64,000 bases of DNA, taken from contig MNCI01001941.1 of the NCBI GenBank assembly GCA_015680685.1, positions 430,515 to 494,514 of the forward strand, given 5' to 3'. Below the pieces are notes generated by a model, which made no database searches, was not told the DNA's origin, and was given only the letters and a program-made list of their open reading frames with translations. The number at the start of each line of letters is the position of its first letter. Position 1 is the first letter of the stretch. The translations under genes and the position numbers were made by a program. Shown here piece after piece: positions 1 through 62,802 of this stretch. This DNA is from Gnetum montanum (taxonomy: Eukaryota > Plantae > Gnetophyta).

Positions 1-155
1 CAACACCAACAAGACTGACGTCTCCAAGGTAAAACCTTCATACAATGCTTTCACTTCAAAGCACACAATGATAAAAAGGCTACCCCAAACCTTCTATTTA
101 TGAAGAAACATGAGGACCAAACCCCAATCCTAATACATGTGGGATAAAACACCAA

Positions 156-265
156 CATTAATGATTGTAACCACCACCATTAATGATTGTAACTATCATC
201 ATTAATAATTGTAACCGTCATCATTAATGATTGTAACCGCCACCATTAATGGTTGTAATCGCCAC
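156..265. repeat. 22-bp minisatellite (CATTAATGATTGTAACCRCCAC) inside the A LTR; 5 copies, with a 6th at 8327-8346
   Basis: Unit starts at 156, 178, 200, 222, 244 and resumes after element B. Absent from the sister LTR at 10542. Confidence 0.9.
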
Positions 266-1154
266 TGATGAGTCGCCATTTTAGTTAACCGTGATATCGC
301 AGCCTGTCTCCTCATTTGTAAATAAGAGGTAGATAGTTCCGATAAGCAGTTTTTCAGTTCTTAGTTTAATTGTTAAGTTTTATGTAGTTCTTCTCTTAGC
401 CCTTCTCTCCTAGTGTATGCCCGCAGTGTGGTGATTGTAATTGTACAACATCCTTATTCGAGTGTGACGTACTTGGACATGCACATGACCGGAAATAAAN
501 ATCACACTTAGGCTAGCTTAGATTCTTTCTCACCCTCTCCCTCTTAGCTTAGTTAATATCACTTTCCATTACACTCAGGAGTAGCATTAGTATAGGAACA
601 CGTCGTATACCTCATTTTGGACTAAACCATACGTGACAAAGTTAACACTAGTTCAGATGGAAAGACAACGAACTGCAACCTAAGAATAACTGTCTTGATA
701 CCACAACTAGCCCGTCTTCAGAGTTCGACTAGATCGTGCGTGAAACGCTCGTATTCGTATGGTTNTGGAGTTCGACCAGATCGTGCGTGAAACGCTCGTA
801 TTCGTATGGTTGAGTGTAGGTGTACCTCGGCACTCATCATTGGTGCCGTTGCCAGGGACAGTGCTAGTTATCTAGATTAGTTATATCATACAAGGTTGCT
901 GTATAGGAATTAACGATATATCTTTTAAGAAGAAATAATTATAAAAAGTCACATATAAAGTCACACACAATTTCACAATGATGCCTCTCCTACAAGACTA
1001 TAATAATGCCACATCTAGTGAGGAAGTTCATTGGAGAACCAACGAACTATATGACAATGAAGGTTGGAGTACGCAACCTGAGGTGGGGGTTTCTTATAAA
1101 CATAAACGAAGGCAACATCATCCCAACGCACGAAAGCATAACTTACCCAATAAC

Positions 1155-2600
1155 GATGAACCCCTACTGGCCACTACAAGCTTAACGTAAATACAAGAGG
1201 CTGTTCGAATCTCCCGTAGGCATCGTAAAGAGAGCCGCCTACCCAGGCTCAATTTAAACAACTTCCCTAATTTCTCAGGAGGCTATGACTTAGATTCATA
1301 TCAACCTTTACAAGCCTTCTACAATGCCTGTACGTGGAACAACATTGATAACAGTTGGCAAAAACTCAAGCTCTTCCCTATGACACTCGTTTGCCAAGCA
1401 AAAGTATGGTATAGATCATTAAAACCAAATTCAATACGACGTTGGCCAACAATGGTAGAACTCTTTAACGAAAGATATCAAACCTATGCAAGAGTGTNNN
1501 NNNNNNNNNNNNNNNNNNNNNNNNNNNNNNNNNNNNNNNNNNNNNNNNNNNNNNNNNNNNNNNNNNNNNNNNCAACTATACGAACTACGAACCCATCAAG
1601 TCCAAGAGCTTATTAAGTGGGTAGCAAAAGAAGAAGGAGAAATGGCTAGATGGGAGAGTGTTGAAAAACATCAACAGGACCAAAAACTCAACTTAACAAA
1701 GGTCCATAATCACAAAAAGGAGAAATCAACCAATCTCAAGGGGGGAAAACCATCTTTGCCAGTACAACATTCATTAGAGGAAGTCGAGGCAAAGATCAAT
1801 AAGATGTTGGAATGGACGCATGAAAAGTGTGGAGAATATATTGATATCATTGGAGATAGAGTTTTGACAACCTGAGAAGCAGGATAAAGTATCATTGGAC
1901 AATCAGAAAGAAGGGATAAGGAAAATAAGAGCTCAACTGCCAATCACACGTATGAATGCAACATTTGCCTGTATGATCACCCCAAGGGCCAATGCCCAAT
2001 CTTGTTACATTTATATGAGCATTGGGGAAGCACGTTACATCTCGAGTTTGTACAGAGATACTGTGTTCAATCACAGTGGCAACAATCCCAGTTGTGGGGG
2101 ATGCCACCCCTAAACTGGAGACACTTTTCATATCATCCGAATTCAAATGCTTATCTAGTCCAATTCCCTGTTTCTCCAACTGGGCCAGTATACTCTATCT
2201 CACCGCATTATCATTCTCCTCAATACTATCAGCCCATGTCCTCAACACAACCATCACCTTGTGCACCTTACACTTCTCCTAATTTTCAACATTCTCATCC
2301 TTTTCCTCCTACATCGCCACTAACTGTTCCTGAAGTGTTTGCACCGCAGCAACAACCCACGAATGTTATTTGTGCTACTATTGCCAACAACAGTGAGAGG
2401 CCTCCTCAACATCAAAAGCGTCCCTTCTTTAAACATGACCGTAAGAAGGGACAACACAATTCCAAGGCCACTGCATTCTCTAACTCAGCACAAGTCCAAC
2501 ACTGTGGTGCACCCTTCCCTTCGAACCAACGCCTCATGTCACCTCATCAAGGCCACCAATTAACACTCCAACCACCATACGGCCCAATGAATACAGCCAT
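1155..2600 (+). pseudogene. gag: Decayed gag of element B
   Basis: Fragments DEPLLAT, KLKLFP-TL, WYRSLKPNSIRRWPTMVELFNERYQTYARV, QWQQSQLWGMPP and KRPFF align with the intact F gag (60316-62802). Contains stops and frameshifts. Confidence 0.88.
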
Positions 2601-4287
2601 GGAGGGCGACATCCTGATCCTTGCATACCATTTAACGGTCATAATTATCATAGTGGGTCAACTCATTATCCGAAAGCTACATCTTATAAATTGCCCCACT
2701 ATGCTTACTATAATCAGGTGTGTGAACCCCGATGGGGTAAGTATGACCAGGTCCCAATATTTCCAACATGCAAGGATCCTCATCTTTCATTTATTAATCT
2801 TTGCCATCCTCAACCGTTTAGTTATGGGGGATATCCCCCATTTTAATAACAAGCAAGATTAATAAATATTTTTCATTTTCTTCAATTTTACAACTTTTTG
2901 TTTTCCAGTTTTTCATTTTTCAATTTCTTGTTTTACCTTTTTGTCTTTTTGTCTTTTTACGTTTTTATAAGTAATCTCGTCTACAAATAAAACACTCATG
3001 TGGCTCGTTGGTTGAGATGTGTTTTATGTTATCGAGTCTCGAGTGATCAATTATGTGGATAGTGAGCCCATTACACCCACTCATCCATTCTACAAATAAG
3101 AGGTTGTGATCGAGGGTACAATGATATTCTTGACATTTTTAAAAAACTTAAAATTAATTTTGTGTTCATTGTACCCAGAATGAAGAAGGATGGATCAAGA
3201 GGGAATGATTAGGGTGTGACATCAAGGGGACTTGCCGATTCTCTTTGGTGATGTTTGTGAGAGTTGTCATGCAACGTGGTTGTACTAAGATCATTGTAGA
3301 TCTAACGAAAAATGGGAGTAAGAGTAATCAAAAGGTACTTAAAAATCCAATGCTGTCCTAGGGGGTCCCACTGGAAAGACATGCACCCATGCTTGAAGGT
3401 TGGCGGTTTCTTTGGATTTAGCAATCATAAAAAAAAAAAAAACACAAAGGAAGTGCCACAAAACAAAAATCACTCCTCCCTTGAACAAAATGCCAAGTGA
3501 TCGTACGCCTCATTGTTTTGGTACTCTCATGGTCGCTCATCATGGGATGAAACAATGCGGTGTCACTGATCGGAGAATGGACTTGGTCCTGATCTCGGAA
3601 CGACAGGTTAATGGCACGTTAATCATGCTTTTCACGTAGGATTTATTGTGCCCTAGGTTGGTTACCTCATGTCCCAATCTCTACGATCCCTTCTATACCT
3701 CGTCTCATCTCACTGTTCGTGTAATTGTAGCTCGTGTTGTGTGTAACGTAGAATTCTTACCTCATTCCGGTGATATTTACATGTGTGTGTTTTGTGGAAT
3801 TAGTGTGGATTACATTTAACCCTTCGAGTGCCCATGGACACTTTTAAGTGTGGTTATGCAAGGGCATTAAAGGTTGGAACCTGCTTTGGGGAGGACCCAC
3901 TTGCGTAATTTTTGTAATTTGCACTCATGACCCATCTTCCACACAACATTTATTACCCTTAGCATATTGCCAACGATATTCTTTCTCTTATTTACTATCC
4001 CTCCGAATTTCAACGTTCTTATGAACCATTACATGGCCTTTTTCTCTCATTTACCACCCGAGGCCTTATTGATCAATTCCACCCACATATAATTATATGT
4101 GCCTTCAAAACTATCTAAATTACCTTAGAACCCTTTAACACGTGCCCACATCTCCTTAATTTCCACTTTGAATTCCAGAAAAACCTTCAAAATTCGGTAT
4201 TTTCCCTTGGGCCTAAACATTGATAGGCCACGATATCGCGTACGTGATATCACGGCCGACGTGATATCCCGTCGCATCAAACTATAT

Positions 4288-4329
<42 letters not shown>

Positions 4330-4771
4330 NACAATTCACGTGGGGGAGTTTTTCGAATTTTTCTCTACGACTTGTGATTGTGAGACCCTTGCTTTTATAC
4401 CTATATCTCACTCGCTGGTACTTCGACTTTCATTCCGTTTGAACCTACTTGAACCCGGAGTGTTCAGCTTAGTTGTGGGGGAGGGACACACACCGAATAG
4501 CACATAACTTTTTTGGAATTTTTCACCGCCCGAAGGACATCATCAAGGGTAATTAGCTATAACATTAAGGATAATTGTGCTGAAAATAATTTCATCCCTT
4601 TAGGTAGACCGGAAAACTAAAATTGGAAACCACCTAAGTAAAACGGACTCACTATTATAATCTTTCGGGAAACATCACACAGAGATAAAAATAAATTAAT
4701 TAAGGCAAGCAGTAAGGTATAACTTAACTTCGGAAACAACCTTACTAACGCTTGGCCTCGTGTGATTGCAG

Positions 4772-7324
4772 ATGGCCCCGAAACGTGGACAACAGGAAGG
4801 TCCTGCTCAAGGTGGAAGCAAATGACCTAGGAGAGGTGAAGAACAAGTCCTTGCCGGACAACATGGAGAGCAGGAGGAATAATCATTTAACATTCATCAA
4901 GAAGACCCTGTTACTGTACAGTCCGGGTAGGTAGAAGGAGGAGCTGCTGCAGCGCCTAAACAGGGACAACATTTCACATTGCCCCAGAATTGTGTTCAGG
5001 CTATCCACGAAAGGTCCACATTCACTGCGGTGATTGTGGAATTAAATTTTGAATCTTTCGCAGAGTTTGCTCCTGAGGTTGTTAGGGACCACCTCAAAGA
5101 GTCTCCCTTATGGCCTATCCTCTCTGCAAGTAGTGCCTGGTACCTAGGGGAAACGTACCAGTTTTGGCACAATAGAGAACAAGGCACCACCATTAACATT
5201 TGTGGTGTGACAGTTGACTTCTCTGTGCAGGCCATTTCGGAAGTATTAAACCTTCCGAATACAGGGCCCAAGGTTGCTCAGTTGTCTACCCGTTTAGACC
5301 CTGATGTGCAACAAGTTTGGTTGAAAAGGGCATATGGCAAGGATAAGGCATTTGGAGAGTTGATGATGGAAGAGAGGATCTATTTCAAAATTGGAACGTG
5401 TCACCTCTTCCCCACGAAGGGCCTAAAAAGGATTTCAACATATGCGGCAAGGGGGTGTGCAATGCTGATGTGAAAGGTTAATGCTAACCTGCCTTATCTA
5501 TATTTCATGGAGATCCTGAGGCGGTTTGAAGAACGGAAGACAGGGAAGCTTGCATTACCCTTCCCTTGTCTTATCAGGAAGTTGTGCCAATGTGCTGGTA
5601 TCAGAGGATACACTAATGATGTCCTCTGAAAAGCCCAGAATGCTTCATATGCTAAATTGTTAAAGCCACCAGTTGCAAGGAAAATCATTGGTGAGATGCT
5701 GGGACCAGAACAAGAAAAAGAATAGACAGCTGGACCAACTGCAAATCAACTTGCAGGACCCAGCCAACTTCCAAGTATGGGACCCAGCCAACAACAGGAA
5801 GCAGGGCCTAGCACGGGCCAGGATCAACCACCACCGNNNNNNNNNNNNNNNNNNNNNNNNNNNNNNNNNNNNNNNNNNNNNNNNNNNNNNNNNNNNNNNN
5901 NNNNNNNNNNNNNNNNNNNNNNNNNNNNNNNNNNNNNNNNNNNNNNNNNNNNNNNNNNNNNNNNNNNNNNNNNNNNNNNNNNNNNNNNNNNNNNNNNNNN
6001 NNNNNNNNNNNNNNNNNNNNNNNNNNNNNNNNNNNNNNNNNNNNNNNNNNNNNNNNNNNNNNNNNNNNNNNNNNNNNNNNNNNNNNNNNNNNNNNNNNNN
6101 NNNNNNNNNNNNNNNNNNNNNNNNNNNNNNNNNNNNNNNNNNNNNNNNNNNNNNNNNNNNNNNNNNNNNNNNNNNNNNNNNNNNNNNNNNNNNNNNNNNN
6201 NNNNNNNNNNNNNNNNNNNNNNNNNNNNNNNNNNNNNNNNNNNNNNNNNNNNNNNNNNNNNNNNNNNNNNNNNNNNNNNNNNNNNNNNNNNNNNNNNNNN
6301 NNNNNNNNNNNNNNNNNNNNNNNNNNNNNNNNNNNNNNNNNNNNNNNNNNNNNNNNNCAAGGCACTCAAGGCCTTACAAGAGGAAAACAAGCAGCTTGTT
6401 GCTGACAACTTTCAGTTGACCTTTGTGGAGAAGCAAAAGAATGTTCTCGAAGAGCATTTCCATTAGTTGCGAGAACAATTCATCCAGGTCAACCAAGACA
6501 TGAGCCATTTAGCCAGGGATAATCGAACCCTCTTAATGGAGAATGTACGTGCCATCCGCCAAAAGATAGCTATCGAAATAAGCGTGTGGAAAAATGAGGC
6601 TAAACGACATGAAAAGCTAAAGGAGCACTTTCGGGACTAGGTGGGGATGTACAAACAGATCCTTGAGAAAGAGATCCATATGGCCAAGGCTCACATCAAC
6701 GCTATCAGTGCTCAACACACTGATTGGCGGGCCATATTGGACACATATGCATTTGCCCACCAGGCGGAAGTTAAGAACCGGGACCTGCAGATCCAAGATC
6801 TTACAGAATACATGGAGTTGGCAAATCTACGGTATGCCAACCTTGCCATGTTAACAGTAGGACGCTCGAGGACAGAGCTCGATTAACAGGTAGCTACCAC
6901 CTACAGCAAATATGAAACAGAATTTGCAGAACGCAAGAAGATATTGCAAAAACTGGAGATTGCAAATTCTGAACTTGAGGTGGTGAAAGCAAGCTATCAA
7001 GGATAGAAAGGTGTCGCAATAGATTTGGCTCGACGGCTTGCGAATTTTCAAGAATATAAAGACAAAGCCAGAGCCTATGAGGAGGAACGATGGGTGTTTG
7101 CGGCTTGGTATGTCAAGGCAAATCAAATGTTTCTGCAACTACCCTGCCTATGGGAGGTGCCGACTCCATCAAACGTCGGAAAATTAGCATGGACGACACA
7201 AGATCCCCGAACCGAAGAGGAGAAACTCCAAGCCATACTTCAACGCTATCAAGTCCCAAGACCTGGAGCACAAGACAAGGGGAAAGCACCTATGGAGGAG
7301 CCACCGCCACCAGGAACTACATGA
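4772..7324 (+). pseudogene. Env-like / extra 3' ORF of element B (plant retrotransposon accessory protein with coiled-coil C-terminus), disrupted
   Basis: ATG at 4772 (MAPKRGQQ...); in-frame segments 4979-5473 (VDFSVQAISEVLNLPNTG), 6641-6886 and 7025-7324 are separated by stops. Lies between an internal PPT-like tract (AGTTGTGGGGGAGGGA, ~4471-4486) and the 3' LTR, the position of the Athila env-like ORF. Confidence 0.72.
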
Positions 7325-10300
7325 GTTCCACCAATTTTGTAGTTGTAGGATTTCCTTTCGCATTCCTTATGGTGTGTCTCAATTTTGTTTTTATTCCACA
7401 CTGCGGCATAAACCCATTTTCACGATTCAATAATCTTGTACCTATCCACTGTGCAATCAATAGAGCTTGTTCTCACTGTAACTCGAGGACGAGTTTTCAT
7501 TCAGTTGTGGGGGTATGATGAGTCGCCATTTTAGTTAACCGTGATATCGCGTATGTGATATCGCGTACGCGATATCGTAGCCTGTCTCCTCATCTATAAA
7601 TAAGAGGTAGACAATTCTGATAAGCAGTTTTTCAATTCTTAGTTTAAGTGTTAAGTTTTATGTAGTTCTTCTCTTAGCCCTTATCTCCCAGTGTATGCCC
7701 GCAGTGTGGTGATTGTAATTGTACGACATCCTTATTCGAGTGTGACGTACTTGGACATGCACATGATCAGAAATAAAGATCGAGATTTCTTCGTCATTGC
7801 AGCATCCACTTAGCTTAATTATTTATTTAATTGTTATTTACTGCTTTCTTAGTTAATATCTCTTCACCCTAAACTCCTGTTAAACGCGAAATGAGTACAA
7901 CTTGATTACGAGCATTTAAGTGTGACTACTTGGTAACCCAGTAGCGTATCTAGGATCTGCACTTGGTAATCCCAATGGTAGTTGTGCACGAAGTCCAAGA
8001 TGTGTACGGATGATCGAGGAACGGATGCTCATCGCACTTAGGCTAGCTTAGATTCTTTCTCACCTCTCCTTCTTAGCTTAGTTAATATCACTTTCCATTA
8101 CACTCAGGAGTAGCATTAGTATAGGAACGCATCATACACCTCATTCTGGACTAAACCATACTTGACAAAGTTAACACTAGTTCAGATGGGAAGACAACGA
8201 ACTGTGACCTAAGGATAACTGTCTTGATACCACAACTAGCCCGTCTGCAGAGTTCGACCGGATCGTGCGTGAAACACTCGTTTTCGTATGGTTGAGTGTA
8301 GGTGTACCTCGCCACTCATCAGCCAGCATTAATGATTGTAACCACCAATCCTAATACATGTGGGATAAAACACATCCCCACATCAAATGCAACATAAAAG
8401 AAAATACAACAATTAATGTATTTGTCTTCATTTTTCCAACAATATCTTCCCCATAGACATAGTGCTCTCCGAATCAACTGAGGTCACCATTGGTTGCATC
8501 TTTGTACATGTGCTACCTGCAAAGACTGAGACAATAGCTTAGAAACATAGAAGTTAGCAGGAACATGATCAGCACATCAACCTCATATACAACCGTCAAG
8601 TATGATCATATAACAGAGAAATATCACTCTCGCAACATCATAATGAGCAAGACCTCAGCAACATGCATAGAGATCAATCATGCAAAATATTGATGGGTCA
8701 ATTAGATACACTCACACAAATGAATTCATCATGAGGCACATCTAGAGAGAGCTAGAACACTCTCAAAATTCCAAGATTCATATACAACAAACATTCCTAA
8801 CCACTGACACTGGTTCCAACCAAGATCAAAATCTCAACACATTCATAAGAGGCGTGGGCAATAAGGAATCGTTATCTCAACTCAAAAATAAGGTGGAAGA
8901 CTAAGGTTTAGCCTACAATAGGTCTCCATAAACCAATTCTCGCTACGACGAGCAACATCAAGGAGGATGTGTCCACAAGAAAAACTTCTCATCAAAAGAG
9001 GTGTGGTCTCAACAAGAACCAACAATAGGATGACCCACACCAAAAGTCTTCAAATCAAAGTGCCCAAAGAAATGTCACCAATCAAAAGAGTAATGCCACA
9101 AACCCAAGGGCAACACAACCAGCTCAAACAAGGGAGCAAAACTCACGAAAGGTCAGCAACAAGGGCAATCTTGCCTCAAGCGCAAGAGGTTGTCAAAACA
9201 AGACAACAGACATTTGGCTTTAGGATGGCACAAACGGCCTCAAAATGCATCCTCAACAATCCCAACAACAAGTCATCATACTACGTAGAACACAAAGCCT
9301 TGCATTATGAATGATAGACACGACAAAGGTAACACACATGCAGAATTTGAGAACGCAACCAAGAAGACATGCATACACAAATTGATAGACATACAATCAC
9401 AAGCACGAACATACGAAGTCTACTGGCAATGGTCTTAATCCACCCAGAACAAGGCTCACCAAAAGCACATGTTTGTAGGCCCTCCGTCTTGAGGTACTTG
9501 GGAACCAACATGTCCCAAGTTGTAATTCACATACTCACTATATCTAGGGCGAGTTGGAGTGCAAGGATATCACATCCTACACAATTCAATCAATGCCATC
9601 TTCATACATGTCATCTGGGTGGAAATCGAAGCGGAGACTAAGTCTGATTCATCCTAGATGAATCACTGGAGGCCAAAGATAAGAGCTCCTCAAGCAACAA
9701 TGATTTATGAGTTGCCAANTCAAAGATAAGAGCTCCTCAAGCAACAATGATTTATGAGTTGCCAATAGAACTCTCCTCTACCATATCAAGTGAAACCACA
9801 ACTGGTCCAACCACAAGTAAACACGTGGAGAACAATACCACAATGCAATCGTATACATCCTCAAGGAGAACAACATACATCAGTTGCTTACAATGTAACA
9901 TCAGTCCCCTCATGAAGAGCGTAAAAATATCACCGTAAGGAAACTCTTCAAAGAATACATAAGGATATGATCCTAGATCACCTAGGTATCAATATGAAGG
10001 GACCATTAATAGAACAACCTCTATGGAGTAACACAACCAAAGAGCACATGCATATCACAACACGATTTCAAAATGCTCTGATACCATCTGTAACAACGTT
10101 GCCCTGACATTGTCCAGCACCCCAATGAATTCAGTAAGATCCAATGGAATTGGGGCAAAAGACCTGGGGAATACGCCTCTAACAAGCAAGCATCCCAAGA
10201 AAGAGTACAAGCAGAAACATAGCTTCTTAATATAAGTATGAGAATGCACCTCAAGGAGGATAACTAACTCCAAATGAGGACCTTGCAAACAAGCACACAA

Positions 10301-12182: not shown

Positions 12183-15100
12183 CCTGTTGCCGAGTACTTT
12201 TAAGATCTTTTTCAATTCAAAAGAAATTTTGGACCATTTATATGTAATACCCCACCTGCCTGACCCAAGCCGAGCTTGGGTGAAAAGCGTACTCTAACGT
12301 CCACTATCAAAGGAACACGAAAAGGATCAAACAACACAGCGGAAAACTATAAATCACTCTTTGAAAATCACATCAATCACAATAGCGGAATACAACATAA
12401 ACACCAAACCATCACTATTAGATGCATACCATCACCAAAACAAGTACATCTCCTGCTACCTAAACATAGCTAATAAGTCTAAAGATCACAGGATAACAAT
12501 CGATACATCTGGCACATGACCATGTACTCACAAAATATATACCTTGTACACAATGGGCAAGACCACAACTCATTGATTATCCAAACCAGTGCCTAGAGCA
12601 AACACATCCATCTCTCTTATGAACATATGTAGCAGTACAAGCAAGAATACTGAACTAAGATCACCATCACCTGCCTCAGGGCCTTGAACCTCCTAAACTC
12701 TGACTCTATCACTTGCATATAAATGAGGTCAGTATAAGATTGAGTGGGAGCCTTTACACACCCCCTGTGGATCTAGTCTGATACTGTGCTGGAGGTGTGG
12801 TGTTCTCTGAATAGCTTGCATCAGGGCTAGTACGTCAAATGCCATACAACACATCAAAACACCATACACATCCATGATCTCACCTAGACTATAAGCACGA
12901 TGTCATAACAAACAACACATATAAACTACACAGAAATGCCGCCCCATCATATCACTATGTATAATACGTCATGACTACCCTATCAATCACCATGACTCAA
13001 TCACAAATGCACAATACAGAAATCATACCATCCGTCCAATGTCAATTGGTGCATAGCATAAATATCATCATACATATATAACATGGATTTCTGGCAACCA
13101 GTGGTCTAAAGGATCAAACATATCATCACAAGTATATCACATAGTTCTGGGCAACGAATGCTCATAGGGATCACACCATACTGAAAAACCTAAACTAAAG
13201 GGCCCTGGATCTTCTACCTATGCTGAGCAGAAAGTAAAGAACAAAAATAAACTCTCTTAATATGCTAATCTTCAATCTATTATTATGAGTATGTGCTGCT
13301 ACAAATATATAAAGTTGGATTCTTCCAACAACATTCAAGGATGAGACAATCATGGATATAGATAAACATGAATATGGATAAGCATGGACAACTAGGATCT
13401 CATCTTATTCAGAAAAGATAGAAGGATGAGATCAAACTCCTAAAAATGTGGAATGTCTACAGATCATCTTCCACAAACCCCCCCATGATGGTAAGAGGTT
13501 CCACGCCAAGGAGGTCTCTGAAGGATGCAAACTTTTCACGGCTCATTGGCTTGGTGAAAATGTCTGCTAGTTGCGCTTCAGTTGCACAATGTACCATGTT
13601 GAGGAGATTCTCTTGGATCAGGCTTCGAAGATGGTGATGCTTGATGTCAATGTGTTTGGTACGTCCATGCTGAACTGGATTGTGTGCCATTGCAATAGCA
13701 CTTGTGCTGTCACAGTATAAGCGAATGGGAGGAACAAGTGTAAGTCCCATTTCAGTGAAAACAGAGTGGATCCACATAGCCTGAGACGCAGCATGAGAGG
13801 CAGCAATGTATTCTGCTTCTGCTGTTGAGAGAGCGACGGAAGACTGCTTCTTTGATCCCCAAGAGATGAGCGATGGACCAAAGAAGAGACAAAAACCAGA
13901 AGTTGACTTTCGATCGTCAAGGTCGCCTCCCCAATCTGCATCAGTGTAGCCCCATACCTTGAAATTTGAATGACGATGGAATGTGATCCCAAAATCTGTG
14001 GTAGTTCTCAAGTAACGTAGGACTCTTTTTGCAGCTTTCCAATGTGATTCATGTGGATCTTGCATGAACCGAGAAAGGTAATTCACAGCATATTGAATAT
14101 CTGGTCGGGTATTGGAGAGATACAATAAGCCACCAACTAGGGACCTGTATAGAGATGGATTGACTGAAGGAGATTTATCATCCTTGGTAAGTTTGATGCC
14201 AAGGGAGAGAGGTGTGTCTGTGGGATTACTAGTAAGCATGCCAAATTTCTCAAGTAAGGATCGGGCAAATTTCATTTGGCATATGGAGATGGATTTTGAT
14301 CTCTGGATTACTTGAAAACCCAAAAAATATGACATTTTCCCTAGATCAGACATTTCAAACTCGTTTTGCATAGCATTCAGAAAATCATTTCCTAATGCAT
14401 TCGTAGATGAAAAATAAATTAAATCATCTACGTACAGACAGACAAAAATAAAATCATCTCCGAGTACCTTTTTGTAAATTGTAGTTTGGGACTGAAGATG
14501 AATGAACCCTTCTTGGATGAAAAATGAATGAATTCGTGCGTACCATGCACGAGGAGCTTGCTTGAGTCCGTACAAGGCTTTGTGAAGCTTGTACACATGA
14601 TCTGGTTTGCCTTCATCGACAAAACCTGCAGGTTGTTCCACATAGACTTCTTCATTCAGAACGCCATTGAGGAATGCAGATGCCACATCCAGTTGATATA
14701 CCACATAGCCAGCGTGAGCAGCAATCGCTAGAAAGATTTTCACGGATTCCATTCGTGAAACGGGAGCAAAGCTATCGTCAAAGTCTCTGCCTTGTTGTTG
14801 GAGATAGCCTTTGGCAACAAGGCGAGCTTTGAATTTTTCTAGTTCACCGTATTGAGTCCTCTTGAGTTTGAATATCCATTTTAAGCCGATGACAGGCTTA
14901 CCAGATGGGCGAGGAACTAGACTCCAGGTGTTATTTTTATTGATTTGCTGAAGTTCATGTTCCATTGCTACTGTTCAACGATCATCCAGCGCAACTTCGA
15001 CGACGGTAGAGGGTTCTACCAAACCATCAGAGCTCCCCCCCAGCGGCATAAGCAGCGCGTAAAATTCATCACCCACGTTGGAGAAGAGAGCAACGGTGGA

Positions 15101-15254
15101 AGCATCTGGGGGTAGCTGGTCAGGCTGCTGGTGAGAATGACTGCGGGTGAAGCGTCTATTAAAGTTCAGATCCAGAATTTGGGTGGCGGGGTGAGAGAGA
15201 GCCACCCAGGAGGAAGATGGCCGAGGAGGAGAGGGGGTCGGTGCAAAGGAGAGG

Positions 15255-15440
15255 ACCGGTGAAGGCAGGTCGCCAGGGCGTCGCGGTGAAGGTAGGTTGC
15301 CTGTGCGTCGTGGTGAAGACAGGTCGCTGGTGCGTCGCGGTGAAGACAGGTCACCGGTGCGTCGCGGTGAAGGCAGGTTGCCTGTGCGTCGCGGTGAAGG
15401 CAGGTTGCCTGTGCGTCGCGGTGAAGACAGGTCGCCGGTG
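15255..15440 (-). repeat. 27-bp coding minisatellite (~7 copies) in the integrase-RT linker of D, encoding G(N/D)L(P/S)SPRRT
   Basis: Unit GCGTCGCGGTGAAG(G/A)CAGGT(C/T)GCC-NGT on the + strand; in frame with RT (ORF 14975-15454). Confidence 0.92.
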
Positions 15441-15734
15441 TGTAGACATTCCACATTTTTAGGAGTTTGATCTAATCCTTCTATCTTTTCTGAATAAGAT
15501 GAGATCCTAGTTGTCCATGCTTATCCATATTCATGTTTATCTATATCCATGATTGTCTCATCCTTGAATGTTGTTGGAAGAATCCAACTTTATATATTTG
15601 TAGCAGCACATACTCATAATAATAGATTGAAGATTAGCAGATTAAGAGAGTTTATTTTTGTTCTTTACTTTCTGCTCAGCATAGGTAGAAGATCCAGGGC
15701 CCTTTAGTTTAGGTTTTTCATTTGGTATCGGAGC
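15439..15734 (+). repeat. Third, inverted copy of the D LTR (282 of 294 bp) followed by a PBS-like TTTGGTATCGGAGC
   Basis: Reverse complement of 15439-15720 matches both D LTRs apart from 2 private substitutions; it lacks the first 12 nt of U3. Confidence 0.95.
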
Positions 15735-18732
15735 GGTGCTGGTGCCTGCACAAAAATTTTTGCTGCCTGGAAAAAAAAGATTAAGGCTAAAACAATCCTG
15801 CTCCAGAAAACGAACGTCACAGGAATCAATGATCATGTGCTGGGTGGGGTCATAGCAACGGTAGGCTTTAGAGGTGGGAGAATAGCCAACGAAAATACAA
15901 GGCTTGGCTTTGTCATGGAATTTCTGGCGGGTGGGGGCAGGAATGTGCACGTAACAGGGCGAACCAAATATTTTTAAGTGGGAAAGATTGGGGGTACGAC
16001 CATGCCAGAGTTCATAGGGTGTTTTATTTTGAATGGATCGGGAAGGCACCCTATTTAAAAGATAAATTGCGGTGGCACAAGCTTCTGCCCAAAAGGTATC
16101 CGCCAAGGAAGACAGTTGTAACAAACACCTGGCCATTTCAACCACGGTCCTATTTTTCCGTTCGGCAATGCCATTTTGTTGGGGTGTATAGGATGTGGTT
16201 GTTTGATGAATAATGCCATTCTTCTTGCAGAATTCTGCAAATTCTCGGGACAAAAATTCACCACCTCGATCTATTCGGATTTGCTTGATGGGACAGCCAC
16301 TTTGATTTTCCATTGCCGCATTGAATTCTTTAAAAAAACTCAAGGTTTGATCCTTTAATTTCATAAAATAACCCCAAGCGAATCGGGAGAAATCATCCAC
16401 AATGATGAACAAATAGCGGTTTTTGCCTAGGCTCAATGCTTGCATGGGACCACATAAATCCATATGAACTAGATCTAATTTTTCTGGAGATCGATGTTCT
16501 TTCCTAGGAAACGNNNNNNNNNNNNNNNNNNNNNNNNNNNNNNNNNNNNNNNNNNNNNNNNNNNNNNNNNNNNNNNNNNNNNNNNNNNNNNNNNNNNNNN
16601 NNNNNNNNNNNNNNNNNNNNNNNNNNNNNNNNNNNNNNNNNNNNNNNNNNNNNNNNNNNNNNNNNNNNNNNNNNNNNNNNNNNNNNNNNNNNNNNNNNNN
16701 NNNNNNNNNNNNNNNNNNNNNNNNNNNNNNNNNNNNNNNNNNNNNNNNNNNNNNNNNNNNNNNNNNNNNNNNNNNNNNNNNATTTGGAAATAACATAGTT
16801 GTTACCTTGCATGGTTGTAAAGGCAAGCGATCCAATCCCAGCAATGGGTAACTTCTTCCCATTACCTATGGTGACCATTCCATCATATGGTTCTAGACTT
16901 GAGAAGAGTGACTTGTTCCCAGTCATGTGATTGCTGCACCCACTATCAACATACCACGTGTTGGCGTTGCTAGCATCTGNNNNNNNNNNNNNNNNNNNNN
17001 NNNNNNNNNNNNNNNNNNNNNNNNNNNNNNNNNNNNNNNNNNNNNNNNNNNNNNNNNNNNNNNNNNNNNNNNNNNNNNNNNNNNNNNNNNNNNNNNNNNN
17101 NNNNNNNNNNNNNNNNNNNNNNNNNNNNNNNNNNNNNNNNNNNNNNNNNNNNNNNNNNNNNNNNNNNNNNNNNNNNNNNNNNNNNNNNNNNNNNNNNNNN
17201 NNNNNNNNNNNNNNNNNNNNNNNNNNNNNNNNNNNNNNNNNNNNNNNNNNNNNNNNNNNNNNNNNNNNNNNNNNNNNNNNNNNNNNNNNNNNNNNNNNNN
17301 NNNNNNNNNNNNNNNNNNNNNNNNNNNNNNNNNNNNNNNNNNNNNNNNNNNNNNNNNNNNNNNNNNNNNNNNNNNNNNNNNNNNNNNNNNNNNNNNAGCA
17401 TTTGCAGAGATTCAAAATCTTTCCTGAAGGCTTGTAACTTGACAACACGAACTTTCAAAGATCCCTTGTATGCAATCTCCAGTGCATCCCATGCAGCTTT
17501 GCTTGTTTGATGCATGACGATTTTGGGAAAGACTGTCAGATCTAACCCAGATTGAATGATGAATAGTGCTTTTGCATCCTTTTTTCTAAGCTTCTTGACT
17601 TCATTCTTTTCATCTTCTGTCAAGGCCTGAAATGCAGCTTGATCAACATCTTGAAAGCCACCTTCAACAATATTCCACAGATCTTGTGAGATCATGAATG
17701 TCCTCATCTTGATTGCCCAATATTCATAATTTTCTCCATTGAATATAGGAATTTGGAGAGACACGGATCCGTTGTTTTGGGCCATTCTGGAGAGATCTGT
17801 TGTCAAGAATTTGAGCTAACCTGCTTTGATACCAAATGAAAAACCTAAACTAAAGGGCCCTGGATCTTCTACCTATGCTGAGCAGAAAGTAAAGAACAAA
17901 AATAAACTCTCTTAATATGCTAATCTTCAATCTATTATTATGAGTATGTGCTGCTACAAATATATAAAGTTGGATTCTTCCAACAACATTCAAGGATGAG
18001 ACAATCATGGATATAGACAAACATGAATATGGATAAGCATGGACAACTAGGATCTCATCTTATTCAGAAAAGATAGAAGGATGAGATCAAACTCATAAAA
18101 ATCTGGAATGTCTACACATCATCTTCCACACATACAACATACAATACATCATATACCGTTCTCATGACACTTGACACATCCACACTCTGTGTGTAACATG
18201 ATATCGTTGACATGAGTACTCATAAATCATAACAATGCATGCAAGTCTTTTATTAGCATTTGTTATCATACACTACTAGTGCTAGTGCTCATTGCTTCAT
18301 ATGCAGCCGTAGGCTACTAACCTTTTGAAGGGTAGTTCCATGCATGTCTATATGCCCCAAGATCTAGTGCCAATCATAGGCCTTGCCTATAGTCTCCCAC
18401 TCTAAGCACGAGGAGTGAAATAGGAGCTTTGGTAATGCATCTTAGCAAGCATCAACCTAACTCCTCTAGGGTGGCTCATCACCAATTGGTCCACATCCTT
18501 ATGTCAATTCCACTAGTATGCATGCATATACACATCATTTAAATAATGTCATAATCTAGTCAACCAACGAATAATCCAAGCAATCACTAACCCTAAGTAA
18601 CTAGTGCTATAGATGTCAACCAATATCCAAAGCATAATTATGATAGAATATATAGTGTAACTGTAGCTCATACACTAATCAATCTTTGATCCTATGCAAC
18701 CAGTGCTACAGGCATCAATTAAATATACAAGT

Positions 18733-57799: not shown

Positions 57800-59130
57800 A
57801 TTGTTTTGTTGGTGACTATTTATTCTTTGGTTGCAAAGAAATTGTCACATTGGCCATTATGGGAGGATGTTGATCAACTTGGATTGTAGGCGTAGTGTAA
57901 ATGGAAGGGGGCACTCTAATGATGAATGGTTCCTTGGGAGGCACAGGTGATGGTATTCTTATTACAAAAGGAGTTCTTGAACTTGATGAAGTTGAAGGAC
58001 CCCTTTGATCATGAGGAGCTACCCAAACCATAAATGACTCATTAGTAGGTTGAGGATTGTTGCTAATTTTGAATGTTGTTATTGTGTAAGCATTGTTGTT
58101 AGCATTTAAGAATCTTTGTACACCTACATGCTTTGGTTTTGAGGCCTAACTAGATTTGACATATCTAATACCAATTTACCATTATCTATCATTTTTTGTA
58201 AATCATCCTTTAACACTACGCAAAAATTTGTGTCATGGCCTAGAAGCTGGTGGTAATGGTAGAATCGATCTAGTTTAAAGTATTTTGGCACAGGTGGATC
58301 ATCCTTGGTTGCAATGGTGGGATCCTTAGCAATTTGAAATAAATAGTCATACCTCTTGTGGGAAATTTTGGTCATTTGTTTGTATTGTATGCAACCACTT
58401 TTGAGCAACTAGTTAAGAAGTTGAGATAGTTTCAAGGGAAATTTTTAATATTTGGACCAATCCTTTCTCTTAAAGTTAGACCTAGACTGATTAGATGTAT
58501 AGGCACCCAATGTTGAAGGTTTGGCGACGGTGGTAGGAGCCTTTTTTTGAGTTATTTTTGGTCGTGTTGTTTTTATTTCTTTGGTCACAGTGGCCATGGC
58601 TACATGGTTTTGCTTCCCTTTATTCCTATCCTTTCTCATGTGTTGATTCTTGTATGTTATGTAGGTAGGATAACCACTGGCTTTAGTAGCATCCTTAATG
58701 TTTTTCATTTGGGAGAAGGCTTGGCCAAGGGATTGTGGGTCTAGGTAGTATAGTTTAGACTTAATAAAGTTGTTGAATACTTTCTTGAAGATGGGAAAAA
58801 GATGAGTCTCAGCTATGGGTTTAGGAATCTCATTGTGGAGAGCATTTCATCATTATATCAACTTCTATATATGTTCAAGGGGTTCTTATTTAATCTTCAT
58901 TAGTTGATCAAGTATTGTATTGAGTTTCAAGTTATACTTGAAATGGTTAATAAATTGAGAAATCAAATCCTCTAATAAGTTAATGGATCCTCTAAGTAAA
59001 GTGTGATACTAATTCAAGGCTTTCCTGGTAAGGGACATAGGGAAGACACACATAATAGTGTCAAGCCAAACTTGTAATAATAAGCATTCAGAATAGAAAG
59101 TAACGAGGTGTGAGTTTGGGTCACCCTTAC
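57800..59130 (-). pseudogene. gag: Decayed Ogre/Tat-type gag, cut at 59130 by insertion of F
   Basis: Minus strand: KGDPNSHLVTFYSEC...FPMSLTRKALN*YHTL...LISQFINHF (retrotransposon gag); FYHYHQLLGHDTNFCVVLKDDLQKMIDNG (Tat/Ogre-type knuckle). Confidence 0.8.
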
Positions 59131-59155
59131 TGATGAGACACGACCTGCATGTGCC

Positions 59156-59200
59156 GCGATATCACGTCTTACCCTGCGATATCGCGTACGCGATATCGCG
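59156..59200. promoter_or_regulatory. GATATC-core palindromes upstream of the F LTR TATA box
   Basis: Perfect 24-bp palindrome GCGATATCGCGTACGCGATATCGC at 59176-59199; homologues in B at 7541-7578 and 4229-4270. Confidence 0.65.
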
Positions 59201-59463
59201 TCCCACCGTCATATCTATAAATAAGAGGTGGCACTCCCTTCATTTCCCAATCCTGGCTAGAAGTAGCGAAGCTCTGGCAGATTGATCACTCCAGAGTTAG
59301 AATTTTTCCCATGTGCCTGCAGTAGGAGTCCTAGAGTGAACGGCTCTTTATTTGAGCAGCTTGTAACCTGAACCCAAGTTGTGTACGGCAATAAAGACGA
59401 ACTTGTTTGGATAAACCTTGCAGCACGTGGTTTCATTTATTGCTTTATTTCCTGCTTTCCTAG

Positions 59464-59888
59464 TGCGTTCAAGTACGACTTGATTACGAGCGTCTACGGA
59501 CGTGTACGGCTAGTCAAGGAATCGGCTGCTTGACGCAATGCATGAGTACGACTCAATTACGAGCATTGGATGCTTGGTAACCCAGTAGCGTATTCCAGGA
59601 TTCTGCGCTTGGTAACTCCCGGGTCTAATGTGTACGGCTAGTTGAGGAATCGGCTGCTCATTGCTAGGCTAGATCGTGTGATAAGTACGACTTAGTTACG
59701 AGCACCCACGGGTGTGTACGGCTGGCTAAGGAATCGGCTGCTTATCACACGTAGGCTAAATAGGTGCCTCAGTACGACCACTTCGAGCACTTGCGTTACG
59801 TGTGGCGATCCCAGTAACGATTAGCGTTTGGTAAGCTGCAGTTGCATAGTTCAGGGTGTGTCCGGTAAGTGGGAACGGATGCTGACGC
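59464..59888 (+). other. Four tandem copies of a structured RNA module in the U5 of F (59464-59537, 59540-59664, 59675-59751, 59766-59888); one homologue in the B 3' LTR (7886-8035)
   Basis: Loop sequences are conserved while stems vary but stay complementary (see findings). Confidence 0.82.
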
Positions 59889-60315
59889 TAGTTAATTTAG
59901 ACTTAGATCTTTAGTTAGAGTTAGCTTGGTTTCTCAACCCTTTCTCCTGGTAGCATAGAAGATAAGCCAAAAATACCAAAAAAATCACATACCTCAGACT
60001 TGCTTAACCATACACCGTGACACTTACAAGCAAGCCTGGGAAGACAACGAACGATTAACCCCAAGTGTTTCTTGTGGTGTTAAGGCATTTAGTCTGCGGA
60101 GTTCGACCGGATCGCGCGTGCACGCTCGTATTCGTATGGTTGAGTGTAGGGGTACCTCGCCACTCATCATTGGCGCCGTTGCCGGGGACTAAGTGTTTTT
60201 ACGCCAATTGAACATAAGGGATATCACTCACATCGTTGTGAGCCTAAAACGAACCTTAGGGTTAATCAGTTAATTCAGAACATAAATAACGGTGAAAATT
60301 AGCACACCATTAGAA

Positions 60316-62802
60316 ATGGCTTCTTCTCATGCAATCAACTCACCTAAGGACAATACAGGAGAAAGTCAGGATCATACGCATAACCGAAATCAACCATGTC
60401 CTCAACAATCCAAAGTCACATATACTCATCCCGATGAGTATGTGCCAGATTTTACCTTTGTTTTCCATCAAGATGAGCAACTGCGGTGGAGAGACATGCA
60501 AGGTAACATCGTGTTACCCCCAGATCGATCCGCTCCCAACATGCTTTCCCGTGCTTTGGTACAGTATGGCATGCATGAGCTGCTTGCTGAATACGTTTTG
60601 GATGATTATGACACAAGGGATTATCATCCCACAAATGCCCAACGTATTCGGGATGCAAGGCAGGAGAGCCAACATTCACTATTGAAGGGCAAGGTTCCCC
60701 ACGTCATTAGTGAAATAGGAGAAGAGGAACCCCTCACGATGGGTTTCTTAGAAAATGATGTTCCTCCTCCTCACTCTAGTGAAGAGGTTAGGCATCAGGG
60801 CCTTAGATCAACGATACATATTCCAGGCTCTGATCCCCGTGAGCACCAGCTGTTCACGGCAGGAACAATCACTCGCACTAATGACGGACTCGTTGATCGT
60901 CACAACGATCGGGGCCGAAGCAGCCGAAGAGAAGGCAAGAAACATCACCATGGTGATGGATCCCCTTCTTCTTCCCCTTCATCACATCATTCACCCTCTC
61001 CTTCCACATCTGGGCGCAGCCACCATGAGCATAACGCGGAAAGTAAAGGTAGAAGAGATGAAATGCCTCGACAAGAAGGTCGAGAGGAGTTAGGACAAGG
61101 GCAAGGACGTAGGGAGAATAGGGAACCACAACGTAGACATCACAGACGTCATGAAAGAGATGATCATGACGAACCCCTATTCGCAACCCGAAGTATGCTT
61201 GATATTAGAGAGGCAGTTAGGATTCCCACAAGGCATTTGAAAGACAGTAGGATCAAGCGTTTGGATATAAATAATATCCCACGTTTTGAAGGGGGATACA
61301 ACGCTGATCCTCAACATCATTTACAGGCATTCCACGATGCCTGTGCCTTGCAGAACATAGACAATGAGTGGCAGAAACTCAAGTTGTTCCCAAGGACACT
61401 CACTAAAGAAGCAGAAAGCTGGTACCGGTCCTTAGAACCGGAAACCATCAGGAGGTGGAGTACGATGCTTGAATTGTTCAACAACAAATATCAAACGTAC
61501 TCCAGAGTGTCTAACTTGCGTAAGCAGATCCAAGGCTGGAAACAAGGAGCTCATGAATCCTTGGATGCTGCCATGGCCCGTTACTACACACTGCTACATC
61601 GTTGCCCGGGCCATGGGTACGCTAAACGGGATCAACTTCGCCACCTCGTGGATGGGCTACGAAATGAAACGAGAAGAACTCTTGGGACTTACGCCCAAGG
61701 GAGACTCTCCCAATTAAGAGCCCATGAAGTTGAAGTTTTGTTGGAACAAGTAGCGCAAGAAGAGGGTGAGCTACGTAAAAGAGAAAGTGCGGAGGAATAC
61801 AACCGCGATCCCTCCCTTCGCAAGAAGGGAGTGAAATTCTGTGATGAGGAGGATGAGTCACCACTCGAAGAGTTGGTGAACAGGAAAACCGTGCCGATCC
61901 AAAAGTTAACAACGGAGGTATCGGCTAAGGTAGACCAAATGTGGGATTCCTTAGACTCACGAATAGAAACAGTTTTGAAAATTGTAGAGGAGTCTAAGGA
62001 TGAGCAAAGTAGTGATAAAGGCAAAAACATGCGGAGAAACTTTAACCCTGCACATAACAAGGGTAAGGGAAAAATCTCTAACTCCGATGAGGCTGAAAAT
62101 TCTGATTCAGACAATGATGGTGGATGTGAGGTCTGCTACTATGACCATCCTAAGGGATGTTGTCCAATTATCTCACATCTGCAGGAGTCTGGGGTGTATG
62201 CATTAAATCCAAGACTTAATCAACGGCAAACACCCCGAAGGTTACCTTATCCACAAGGTAACCCAAGGCAGTTCCACCAACCCTTGACGTATTATCCAAG
62301 TGGAACGCCTCCGCAGCCCATTGGACAACACCAGCAGTGGCAATACCCACAGTCATGGGGGATGCCACCGCCAACACATCAATACCCTTACCGGCAGCCT
62401 GATCCTTATGGTTATTATGTGCAGCAGCCGGTTTCTCCAGGTGACTCTATGAGTCACACTACCCCCCAACGTCACTACCAAGCTCGGGAGTACTTCAGAA
62501 GGACTCCTTCTCCTCCGGGAGACATCCCACATTCCGTCCATCCTCTAACTCCACCCGCACCTCTTCCTCAAGTAGTTCCCATAACACCTCCTGCTCCAAC
62601 AATGCAAGGGGAACTTCCTCCTCAACCGCAGCAACGTCACGCTGCGAGAGCTGTAAATATCCAACCGGGTACTAGTTCTGGCGACAACTGTACAAAGAAG
62701 AGACCTTTTTTCAGAACTAAGAGCCCAGACAGACTCTCGCAACAACAAGCGGTTGAGGCCATGTATAGGCCTCTAACTACTAACGCTTCGGAGCACCCTT
62801 AA
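60316..62802 (+). CDS. gag: Gag of element F
   Basis: Long open frame; IPRFEGGYNADPQHHLQAF, KLKLFPRTLTKEAESWYRSL, CEVCYYDHPKGCCP knuckle, Pro/Gln-rich tail. Confidence 0.9.
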   Translation: MASSHAINSPKDNTGESQDHTHNRNQPCPQQSKVTYTHPDEYVPDFTFVFHQDEQLRWRDMQGNIVLPPDRSAPNMLSRALVQYGMHELLAEYVLDDYDTRDYHPTNAQRIRDARQESQHSLLKGKVPHVISEIGEEEPLTMGFLENDVPPPHSSEEVRHQGLRSTIHIPGSDPREHQLFTAGTITRTNDGLVDRHNDRGRSSRREGKKHHHGDGSPSSSPSSHHSPSPSTSGRSHHEHNAESKGRRDEMPRQEGREELGQGQGRRENREPQRRHHRRHERDDHDEPLFATRSMLDIREAVRIPTRHLKDSRIKRLDINNIPRFEGGYNADPQHHLQAFHDACALQNIDNEWQKLKLFPRTLTKEAESWYRSLEPETIRRWSTMLELFNNKYQTYSRVSNLRKQIQGWKQGAHESLDAAMARYYTLLHRCPGHGYAKRDQLRHLVDGLRNETRRTLGTYAQGRLSQLRAHEVEVLLEQVAQEEGELRKRESAEEYNRDPSLRKKGVKFCDEEDESPLEELVNRKTVPIQKLTTEVSAKVDQMWDSLDSRIETVLKIVEESKDEQSSDKGKNMRRNFNPAHNKGKGKISNSDEAENSDSDNDGGCEVCYYDHPKGCCPIISHLQESGVYALNPRLNQRQTPRRLPYPQGNPRQFHQPLTYYPSGTPPQPIGQHQQWQYPQSWGMPPPTHQYPYRQPDPYGYYVQQPVSPGDSMSHTTPQRHYQAREYFRRTPSPPGDIPHSVHPLTPPAPLPQVVPITPPAPTMQGELPPQPQQRHAARAVNIQPGTSSGDNCTKKRPFFRTKSPDRLSQQQAVEAMYRPLTTNASEHP

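Follow-up and report, generated by a model that had tools for sequence, protein, structure and literature searches.

The leaders of HIV-1 and MLV RNAs are structured, with several Gag/NC sites and a poly(A) hairpin that pairs AAUAAA, and retroviral packaging signals usually lie 3' of the primer site. The CTE of simple retroviruses is a mirror-symmetric rod with two conserved loops on interchangeable stems that binds NXF1. In coronaviruses, structural motifs that are repeated and particular to a lineage serve, or have been proposed to serve, as packaging signals (PMC8206606, partial text), and for BARE, packaged and translated RNA form separate pools (PMC3735527, partial text). Athila elements make up a large share of many plant genomes, and in the literature we found no structural description of a packaging mark on plant Ty3/gypsy RNA. 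Here, we analyze an array of repeated, predicted hairpin modules in the LTR of a likely Athila-like element, F, and in its pol-less relative B, both within a window of 64,000 nucleotides from Gnetum montanum (contig MNCI01001941.1, positions 430,515 to 494,514). A sequence-only reading of this window had described five module copies, four in F and one in B; all five are present with the stems and loops it quoted, and we confirm the array as real. To this we add that the two loops of a module are one motif, and that F and B each have a one-loop module, module 0, whose predicted lower stem takes in the AATAAA signal. Covariation, family variants and the sharing of modules between F and B together support a conserved RNA structure on the genomic strand of an Athila-type LTR, as had been claimed.

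Elements F and B and their predicted hairpin modules

Judging from its sequence features, F is likely an Athila-like Ty3/gypsy (OTA) element (Table 1). As expected for the Athila clade, its LTR ends in ATCA and is followed by the primer site TGGCGCCGTTGCC, the site that ATHILAfinder uses for Athila, with specificity tested in Brassicaceae only (10.64898/2026.03.20.713144, partial text). Its Gag matches PF03732 (E 2.8e-12) and an aspartyl protease is also present, the combination looked for in plant Ty3/gypsy elements; the protein-atlas neighbors of Gag are plant Retrotrans_gag clusters, all below 0.9 and to be taken as a lead only, and Gag searches returned no relatives with genomic context. 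Athila assignment draws on RT/RH/INT phylogeny and the absence of an aRH domain (PMC6317226, partial text); pol of F enters an N gap and the window end, and RT is absent from the window. Of the earlier Athila/Tat label, the primer site favors the Athila half over the Tat half as the likely assignment. The F family is very abundant, with 130,942 contigs from a single DNA run mapping to 1151 bases.

Transcription of F would start about 30 nt 3' of its TATA-like element. About 950 nt separate the TATA box from the primer site, and the leader, about 1070 nt long, carries 7 upstream ATGs. Just 5' of the TATA box, short GCGATATCGC palindromes are grouped in both elements (59147-59208 in F, 7541-7580 in B), a possible U3 enhancer. 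At the other end of the LTR, a motif like F's GTTCGAC also precedes the primer site in plant-type loci from other assemblies. A G(G/A)(T/A)TCGA word recurs near the 3' end of Athila-type LTRs (60098-60108 in the window, and roughly 70-130 nt before the primer site in loci L027-L038); to us it resembles a tRNA T-loop, and it may matter for primer handling.

The Gag cores of F and B are 61% identical, and both Gags contain a CX2CX3HX4C knuckle. Their LTRs can be aligned only as short blocks, namely the TATA region (80% over 55 nt), a U-rich tract, the modules, a purine-rich 16-nt loop and the last 79 nt. The purine-rich stretch is 100% identical between the two and is predicted to lie in a large single-stranded loop, making it a second candidate protein site. 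Retention of the module by the pol-less B had been offered as an argument for function; the module is indeed present in B, but it argues for less than was proposed, B having a Gag-like frame of its own. B also contains an extra downstream frame at 4931-5470 with a faint Transposase_32 match (E 0.09). Elsewhere in the window, a Ty1/copia element at 13182-18130 combines a 27-nt tandem array (15230-15470) with a pair of 294-bp LTRs sharing 99% identity.

Table 1. Features of elements F and B (window positions) and of hairpin arrays in other Athila-type LTRs (locus positions)
Feature	Positions	Strand	Description
Element B	267-8321	+	LTR ends as F; gag broken; pol-less
Module 0 of B, 5' LTR	449..499	+	double-loop module expected next, missing at N join at 500
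3' LTR of B	7517..8321	+	from sequence and comparison with F
Module 0 of B, 3' LTR	7727..7781	+	AATAAA within lower stem; degenerate right loop
Double-loop module of B, 3' LTR	7888..8034	+	long form
5' LTR of F	59131..60169	+	1039 bp, TGATGAG...ACTCATCA; from sequence; ends same as B's LTR ends
TATA-box-like element of F	59216..59223	+	from sequence; block kept in B's LTR
Module 0 of F	59345..59397	+	one loop; lower stem UCUUUAUU/AAUAAAGA pairs AATAAA at 59390-59395; predicted fold
Module 1	59466..59536	+	short form; two internal loops; c(UACG)g cap; paired variants 59492/59501
Module 2	59540..59663	+	long form; apical domain with two UUGGUAA units
Module 3	59675..59751	+	short form; 13-bp outer stem; c(CACG)g cap
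Module 4	59766..59888	+	long form; 6-bp middle stem
Purine-rich 16-nt stretch	60037..60052 (F), 8187-8202 (B)	+	identical in F and B; predicted single-stranded
Conserved LTR 3' end of F	60092..60169	+	GTTCGAC motif and terminal hairpin; 91% over 79 nt versus B
Primer binding site of F	60171..60188	+	TGGCGCCGTTGCC..., Athila type (tRNA-Asp/Asn)
gag of F	60316..62802	+	828 aa; CX2CX3HX4C knuckle at residue 604; N-terminal part Arg/His-rich
L027 hairpin array	2885-3128	-	fixed loop C(GAGA)G with bulged G
L031 hairpins	121-171	+	fixed loop GAGACCGGAAGG, diverged paired stems
L036 hairpin array	519-684	-	fixed loop GAGCUURU, diverged paired stems

Loops 1 and 2 of each module are a single motif in direct repeat, its left strand being CGA and its right strand G(U/A)(A/C)(U)CGG with an additional free base; in the predicted fold, CG pairs with CG to leave a 2-nt bulge and an A opposite 3 nt. 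Short forms take turns with long ones, and the 13-bp outer stem of copy 3, both caps and the AATAAA at 59390-59395 are as the sequence-only reading gave them. The UUGGUAA repeats that it saw in the long forms are present too, with the correction that copy 4 has one exact and one degenerate unit. The apical domain of the long forms thus holds two like units, which could cross-pair around a near-symmetric loop. Four GGTAA donor-like words occur in the long forms and module 4. Module 0 of F matches the covariance model weakly (E 0.09), and its left loop is TGA in this copy and CGA in about 90% of family depth; in B, both LTRs keep the AAUAAA pairing, with a U-A pair replacing the inner C-G. A kink-turn has its bulge 5' of tandem G-A pairs, and loop E (sarcin-ricin) has AGUA opposite GAA adjoining a helix; by inspection against these definitions the modules fit neither, with extra bases 3' of GA and with AGUA paired to UGCU. 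Searches for tRNAs and for a tandem period found no tRNA and no remaining period.

Covariation, strand and variation within the family

That near-invariant loops sit on stems which differ yet still pair is borne out by the alignment of the five copies. In pairwise comparison, 175 of 200 loop positions (88%) and 120 of 120 loop-flanking pairs are identical, against 143 of 256 (56%) in the other, variable stem columns, while 115 of 116 stem cells pair. Ten of 24 pairs are changed on both sides, which none of 500 shuffles matches, and slid registers of the alignment give 27-40% pairing; the tally of further pair types falls short of significance (58 of 500 shuffles). Since the structure was drawn from these same five paralogues, the covariation test favors the drawn structure. 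A pattern for the left strand of the loops matches 7 times in the window against 0.07 expected, a number reached in 0 of 100 shuffles. A pairing-aware descriptor of a single loop, which demands the two strands of the loop together with the stem on either side, finds 12 matches on the + strand and 0 on the - strand, compared with 0-2 per shuffled window (10 shuffles). The two loops in each of the five modules account for ten of these matches; of the other two, one reflects cross-pairing between copies 1 and 2, and the last falls on a further module in the 5' LTR of B.

Folding energy lends this picture no support. The array folds to an energy no lower than that of its shuffles (z -0.31), copy 3 alone is significant when copies are folded singly (z -4.4), and the drawn fold lies above the minimum by 0.8 kcal/mol in copy 4 and by 0.1 kcal/mol in the B copy. 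We rejected the lower energy of the + strand (-147.7 versus -108.6) as a signal; shuffles reproduce the gap (-146.0 versus -115.2), which is therefore compositional. CpG retention was likewise rejected as specific to the modules, at 1.2 in modules versus 1.05 and 0.95 in flanking parts of the LTR.

The argument that G-U pairs on the + strand point to RNA-level selection survives in part. Module stems contain 18 G-U and 1 A-C cells, a count that is not independent of the drawn structure, and common variants create G-U pairs, but a strand-symmetric count is dominated by noise (26 G-U versus 19 A-C over ten regions, null 15.7 versus 15.7; 2 versus 4 in the F LTR alone). For the variants we used assembled contigs from three runs and a threshold of at least 17% in any run. 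This yielded 28 variants, 6 between module 0 and module 1 and 22 in modules 1-4, the latter comprising 16 on predicted pairs and 6 at unpaired positions. Pairing is kept by 12 of the 16, among them the two partners of an inner-stem pair at 48-61%, and broken by 4, all of them transversions outside the double-loop core. Among seven transitions at Watson-Crick pairs, six produce G-U on the + strand and the seventh is compensated at its partner base. Unpaired variants include one that turns CACG into UACG and one that turns GUC of copy 4 into the GUA of other copies, and the module 4 apical variants 59806, 59837 and 59838, all common, keep or tighten the cross-pairing. These family variants weakly favor selection on + strand RNA, being few and unphased and drawn from contigs that may in part be mapped to the wrong module. 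In some contigs, joints skip whole modules or apical domains.

In one RNA-library run, X19, which may contain DNA, 104 of 6752 contigs lie on the module array (59407-59796), deepest over module 1, and cover is zero at 59330-59389 and 59810-59900, where DNA runs have cover. Run X14, guessed to be RNA, is deepest 5' of the poly(A) signal. We set both depth profiles aside as evidence on RNA ends, as the runs disagree and contigs cannot show RNA ends.

Searches for described motifs and for arrays in other LTRs

The array matches no described motif that we could find, in keeping with the sequence-only reading. An Rfam 15 search of 58900-60300 at E up to 10 gave 7 weak matches, all scoring well under the gathering cutoff and lying outside the modules proper, so the array is without a family match. 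No ribozyme family appeared at that threshold, which agrees with the absence of hammerhead, hairpin, twister and HDV cores noted in the sequence-only reading and on our own comparison; twister-sister, pistol and hatchet likewise had no Rfam match, and the conserved CA in a 5x6 loop is absent. Our literature search, mostly of open-access main texts, found no description of such arrays in Athila LTRs; a short-motif text search gave, among the matches listed, only papers unrelated by title, and the main texts of the STRUCT preprint and of a 2025 survey of plant structured RNAs make no mention of retrotransposons. A fixed-loop, covarying-stem array in an Athila LTR is thus apparently undescribed.

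A covariance model had been proposed as a way to find further copies. Built from the F and B copies, it finds the weak module 0 match given above but nothing convincing in other sequence sets. A scan of viral contigs for the short-module pattern returned 0 loci, and 22 pattern loci in metagenome contigs were rejected as chance (a full middle stem in 0 of 22, the best with 6 of 8 pairs; best model E 0.077). Scanning viral contigs for the primer site gave 4 loci, GC-rich and without LTR features, which were also rejected. By scanning prokaryote assemblies for the LTR/primer junction we obtained 12 loci, 11 of which resemble plant LTR ends (L027, L028, L030-L038) and presumably represent stray plant DNA. 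The F/B motif is absent from these 11, and the F/B model run over all 12 primer-site loci reaches a best E of 0.61.

Some of these LTRs contain arrays of their own. We tested eight of the 11 loci for a 6-mer that recurs at the tips of hairpins whose flanks have diverged, leaving out L033 and L035 (near copies) and L037 (too short). This crude test was passed by three of the eight: L027 with 4 sites (0 of 20 shuffles), L032 with 3 (0 of 20) and L036 with 3 (1 of 20). L028, L030, L031, L034 and L038 showed nothing above shuffles; by eye, L031 has two like hairpins, and L028 and L034 have tandem copies. In L032 a clean stem is found at one of the three array sites. In L036, three of four GAGCUURU loops sit on 8-bp stems with 24 of 24 cells paired and 6 of 8 pairs changed on both sides, and in L027, three of five C(GAGA)G sites share the bulged G, with 27 of 27 stem cells paired and 7 of 9 pairs changed on both sides; both alignments were hand-chosen, and the omitted sites pair poorly. 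The L027 and L036 arrays are both placed 3' of a TATA-like word, at distances of 350-610 nt upstream of the primer site; for the F array this distance is 280-830 nt. Two unrelated Athila-type LTRs have clear fixed-loop, covarying-stem arrays of their own, and an Rfam search of the arrays in other LTRs found no family that covers them. On the opposite strand of L032, inside the Athila-type element, Rfam snoR71 scores above its gathering threshold at 1858-1965, which we take to be a spurious family match.

A proposed packaging array and its described counterparts

We propose that the array is a family-specific, multivalent protein-binding site on the genomic RNA leader by which Gag selects full-length RNA for packaging, a reading to which we assign a probability of roughly 0.45. 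The modules lie between the TATA box and the primer site, are among the few blocks common to two diverged LTRs, and repeat a single structured motif several times on stems that vary, as expected of a repetitive structural motif; fixed loops repeated on free stems argue for a repeated ligand site. In our model, the modules would fold in vivo on genomic RNA and present the same internal loop once or twice per hairpin, with the stems serving as scaffolds free to drift. Lying in U5, modules 1-4 would occur only at the 5' end and so mark full-length RNA, if poly(A) addition follows AATAAA; this placement depends on a putative poly(A) site near 59410-59425, and module 0 includes the signal itself. 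A protein would bind the loops, and this may be Gag, acting through its knuckle or basic region: Gag is a candidate because it is element-encoded and has a knuckle in both F and B, and an element-encoded reader fits the different loops of different families better than a host one. Module copy number may vary by unequal template switching, a pol-less relative could keep the motif for co-packaging with a helper's Gag-Pol, and through the one-loop module 0, poly(A) signal use may be coupled to this binding. The upstream ATGs suit a packaged pool more than a scanned mRNA. The position of the F array 5' of the primer site, where retroviral signals are usually 3', weakens the packaging reading, and so do the unremarkable folding energy, the derivation of the structure from five paralogues, the noise in the strand-symmetric count, the unphased variants and the modest yield of the crude array test. 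The earlier suggestion of a multivalent protein-binding array gains some support, by analogy, from the arrays in other Athila-type LTRs.

The features just described also fit, though less well in our judgment, a scheme in which a host protein or structure alone controls RNA processing, by poly(A) masking in the 5' LTR, export or scanning-independent translation. Module 0 pairs AATAAA in F and B much as the HIV-1 poly(A) hairpin does, the rod shape with its pair of conserved internal loops is reminiscent of the retroviral CTE, and both the seven ATGs in so long a leader and the four donor-like words would be at home in such a scheme. We consider it unlikely, given that four more modules lie away from the signal and that loops differing among Athila-type LTRs are hard to fit to one conserved host reader; module 0, being in both LTRs, cannot alone distinguish a 5' from a 3' end. 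RNA-RNA contacts for genome dimerization, through the near-symmetric apical domain or loop-receptor docking, would explain why its two like units cross-pair, why three common module 4 variants preserve this, and why short and long forms alternate, but a conserved self-complementary terminal loop is absent and the short caps are compact UNCG-type loops, leaving this reading improbable.

Conservation at the DNA level is more improbable by a shade. In such a reading GTACG words, which we take to be SPL-type cores, would be transcription-factor sites and the stems palindromes kept by template switching, and indeed 9 of the 41 GTACG words on both window strands fall in the F LTR and leader, CpG is undepleted across the LTR, and the strand-symmetric count is noisy. 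The loop layout nevertheless persists without GTAC on loop 1's right strand and in loop 2 of copy 4, the descriptor is silent on the minus strand, the array lies 3' of the TATA box, and both the excess of G-U over A-C stem cells (not an independent count) and the common variants favor the + strand. A new class of small self-cleaving ribozyme, with one in every module, is very improbable. Two conserved internal loops on variable stems recall the hairpin and twister-sister-like layouts (PMC11620745, partial text), and hammerheads occur in plant retrozyme LTRs (PMC4918200, partial text). Against this, twister-sister-like cleavage occurs at the conserved CA in a 5x6 loop that is absent here (PMC11620745, partial text), no Rfam ribozyme family was matched, and the two loops are one repeated motif of which module 0 has a single copy. 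Progeny would lose the array if several modules of both LTRs were cut, and cutting between R and the primer site would cost the R region and block strand transfer, making self-cleavage unlikely. Least probable of all is that the modules are functionless leftovers from tandem duplication of a chance hairpin: their folding energy is unremarkable, LTRs gain and lose repeats, and contig joints skip modules or apical domains, but the stems have diverged in step around unchanging loops, no tandem period survives, and the module is common to LTRs that are otherwise unalignable.

The packaging reading invites a broader and more doubtful proposal, which we hold only tentatively: Athila elements in general may tag their genomic RNA with family-specific fixed-loop hairpin arrays in a long U5, read by the cognate Gag, with this recognition code deciding which non-autonomous elements a family mobilizes. 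The F/B double-loop module would be the most elaborate case and would also gate the poly(A) signal. If each family has its own loop, helper/parasite pairs would be predictable from LTR sequence, and one 60-nt module offers a direct experimental handle on RNA marking.

Among described systems, retrozymes share with this locus a structured RNA in a retroelement (PMC4918200, partial text), but their hammerhead catalytic cores are absent here, and F encodes Gag and keeps a normal primer site; twister-sister-like ribozymes share only a two-loop outline with the modules (PMC11620745, partial text). Sirevirus LTRs also contain a high-copy, CpG-rich repeated motif in a plant LTR, as DNA palindromes 5' of the TATA box of Ty1/copia elements (PMC2829016, partial text), whereas the F modules lie 3' of the TATA box, pair over 30-130 nt and tolerate G-U. 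The CTE and the modules are both two-loop rods, but module loops are in direct orientation and have no Rfam match. Psi resembles the F array in its structured 5' leader and AAUAAA-pairing hairpin, but lies mostly 3' of the primer site and is not one repeated motif, while the F array is 5'. The coronavirus motifs (SL5a-c gUUYCGUc and the Embecovirus agc/guAAu packaging signal) offer a likeness in their 2-8 copies of a short structured motif on variable stems; they are lineage-specific and sit in the 5' UTR or a long stem-bulge, where they are read as capsid-protein binding sites (PMC8206606, partial text). The analogy would be one of design, since sequence and virus group are unrelated: here, a 3x7-8 nt internal loop appears twice per hairpin in the LTR of a retrotransposon.
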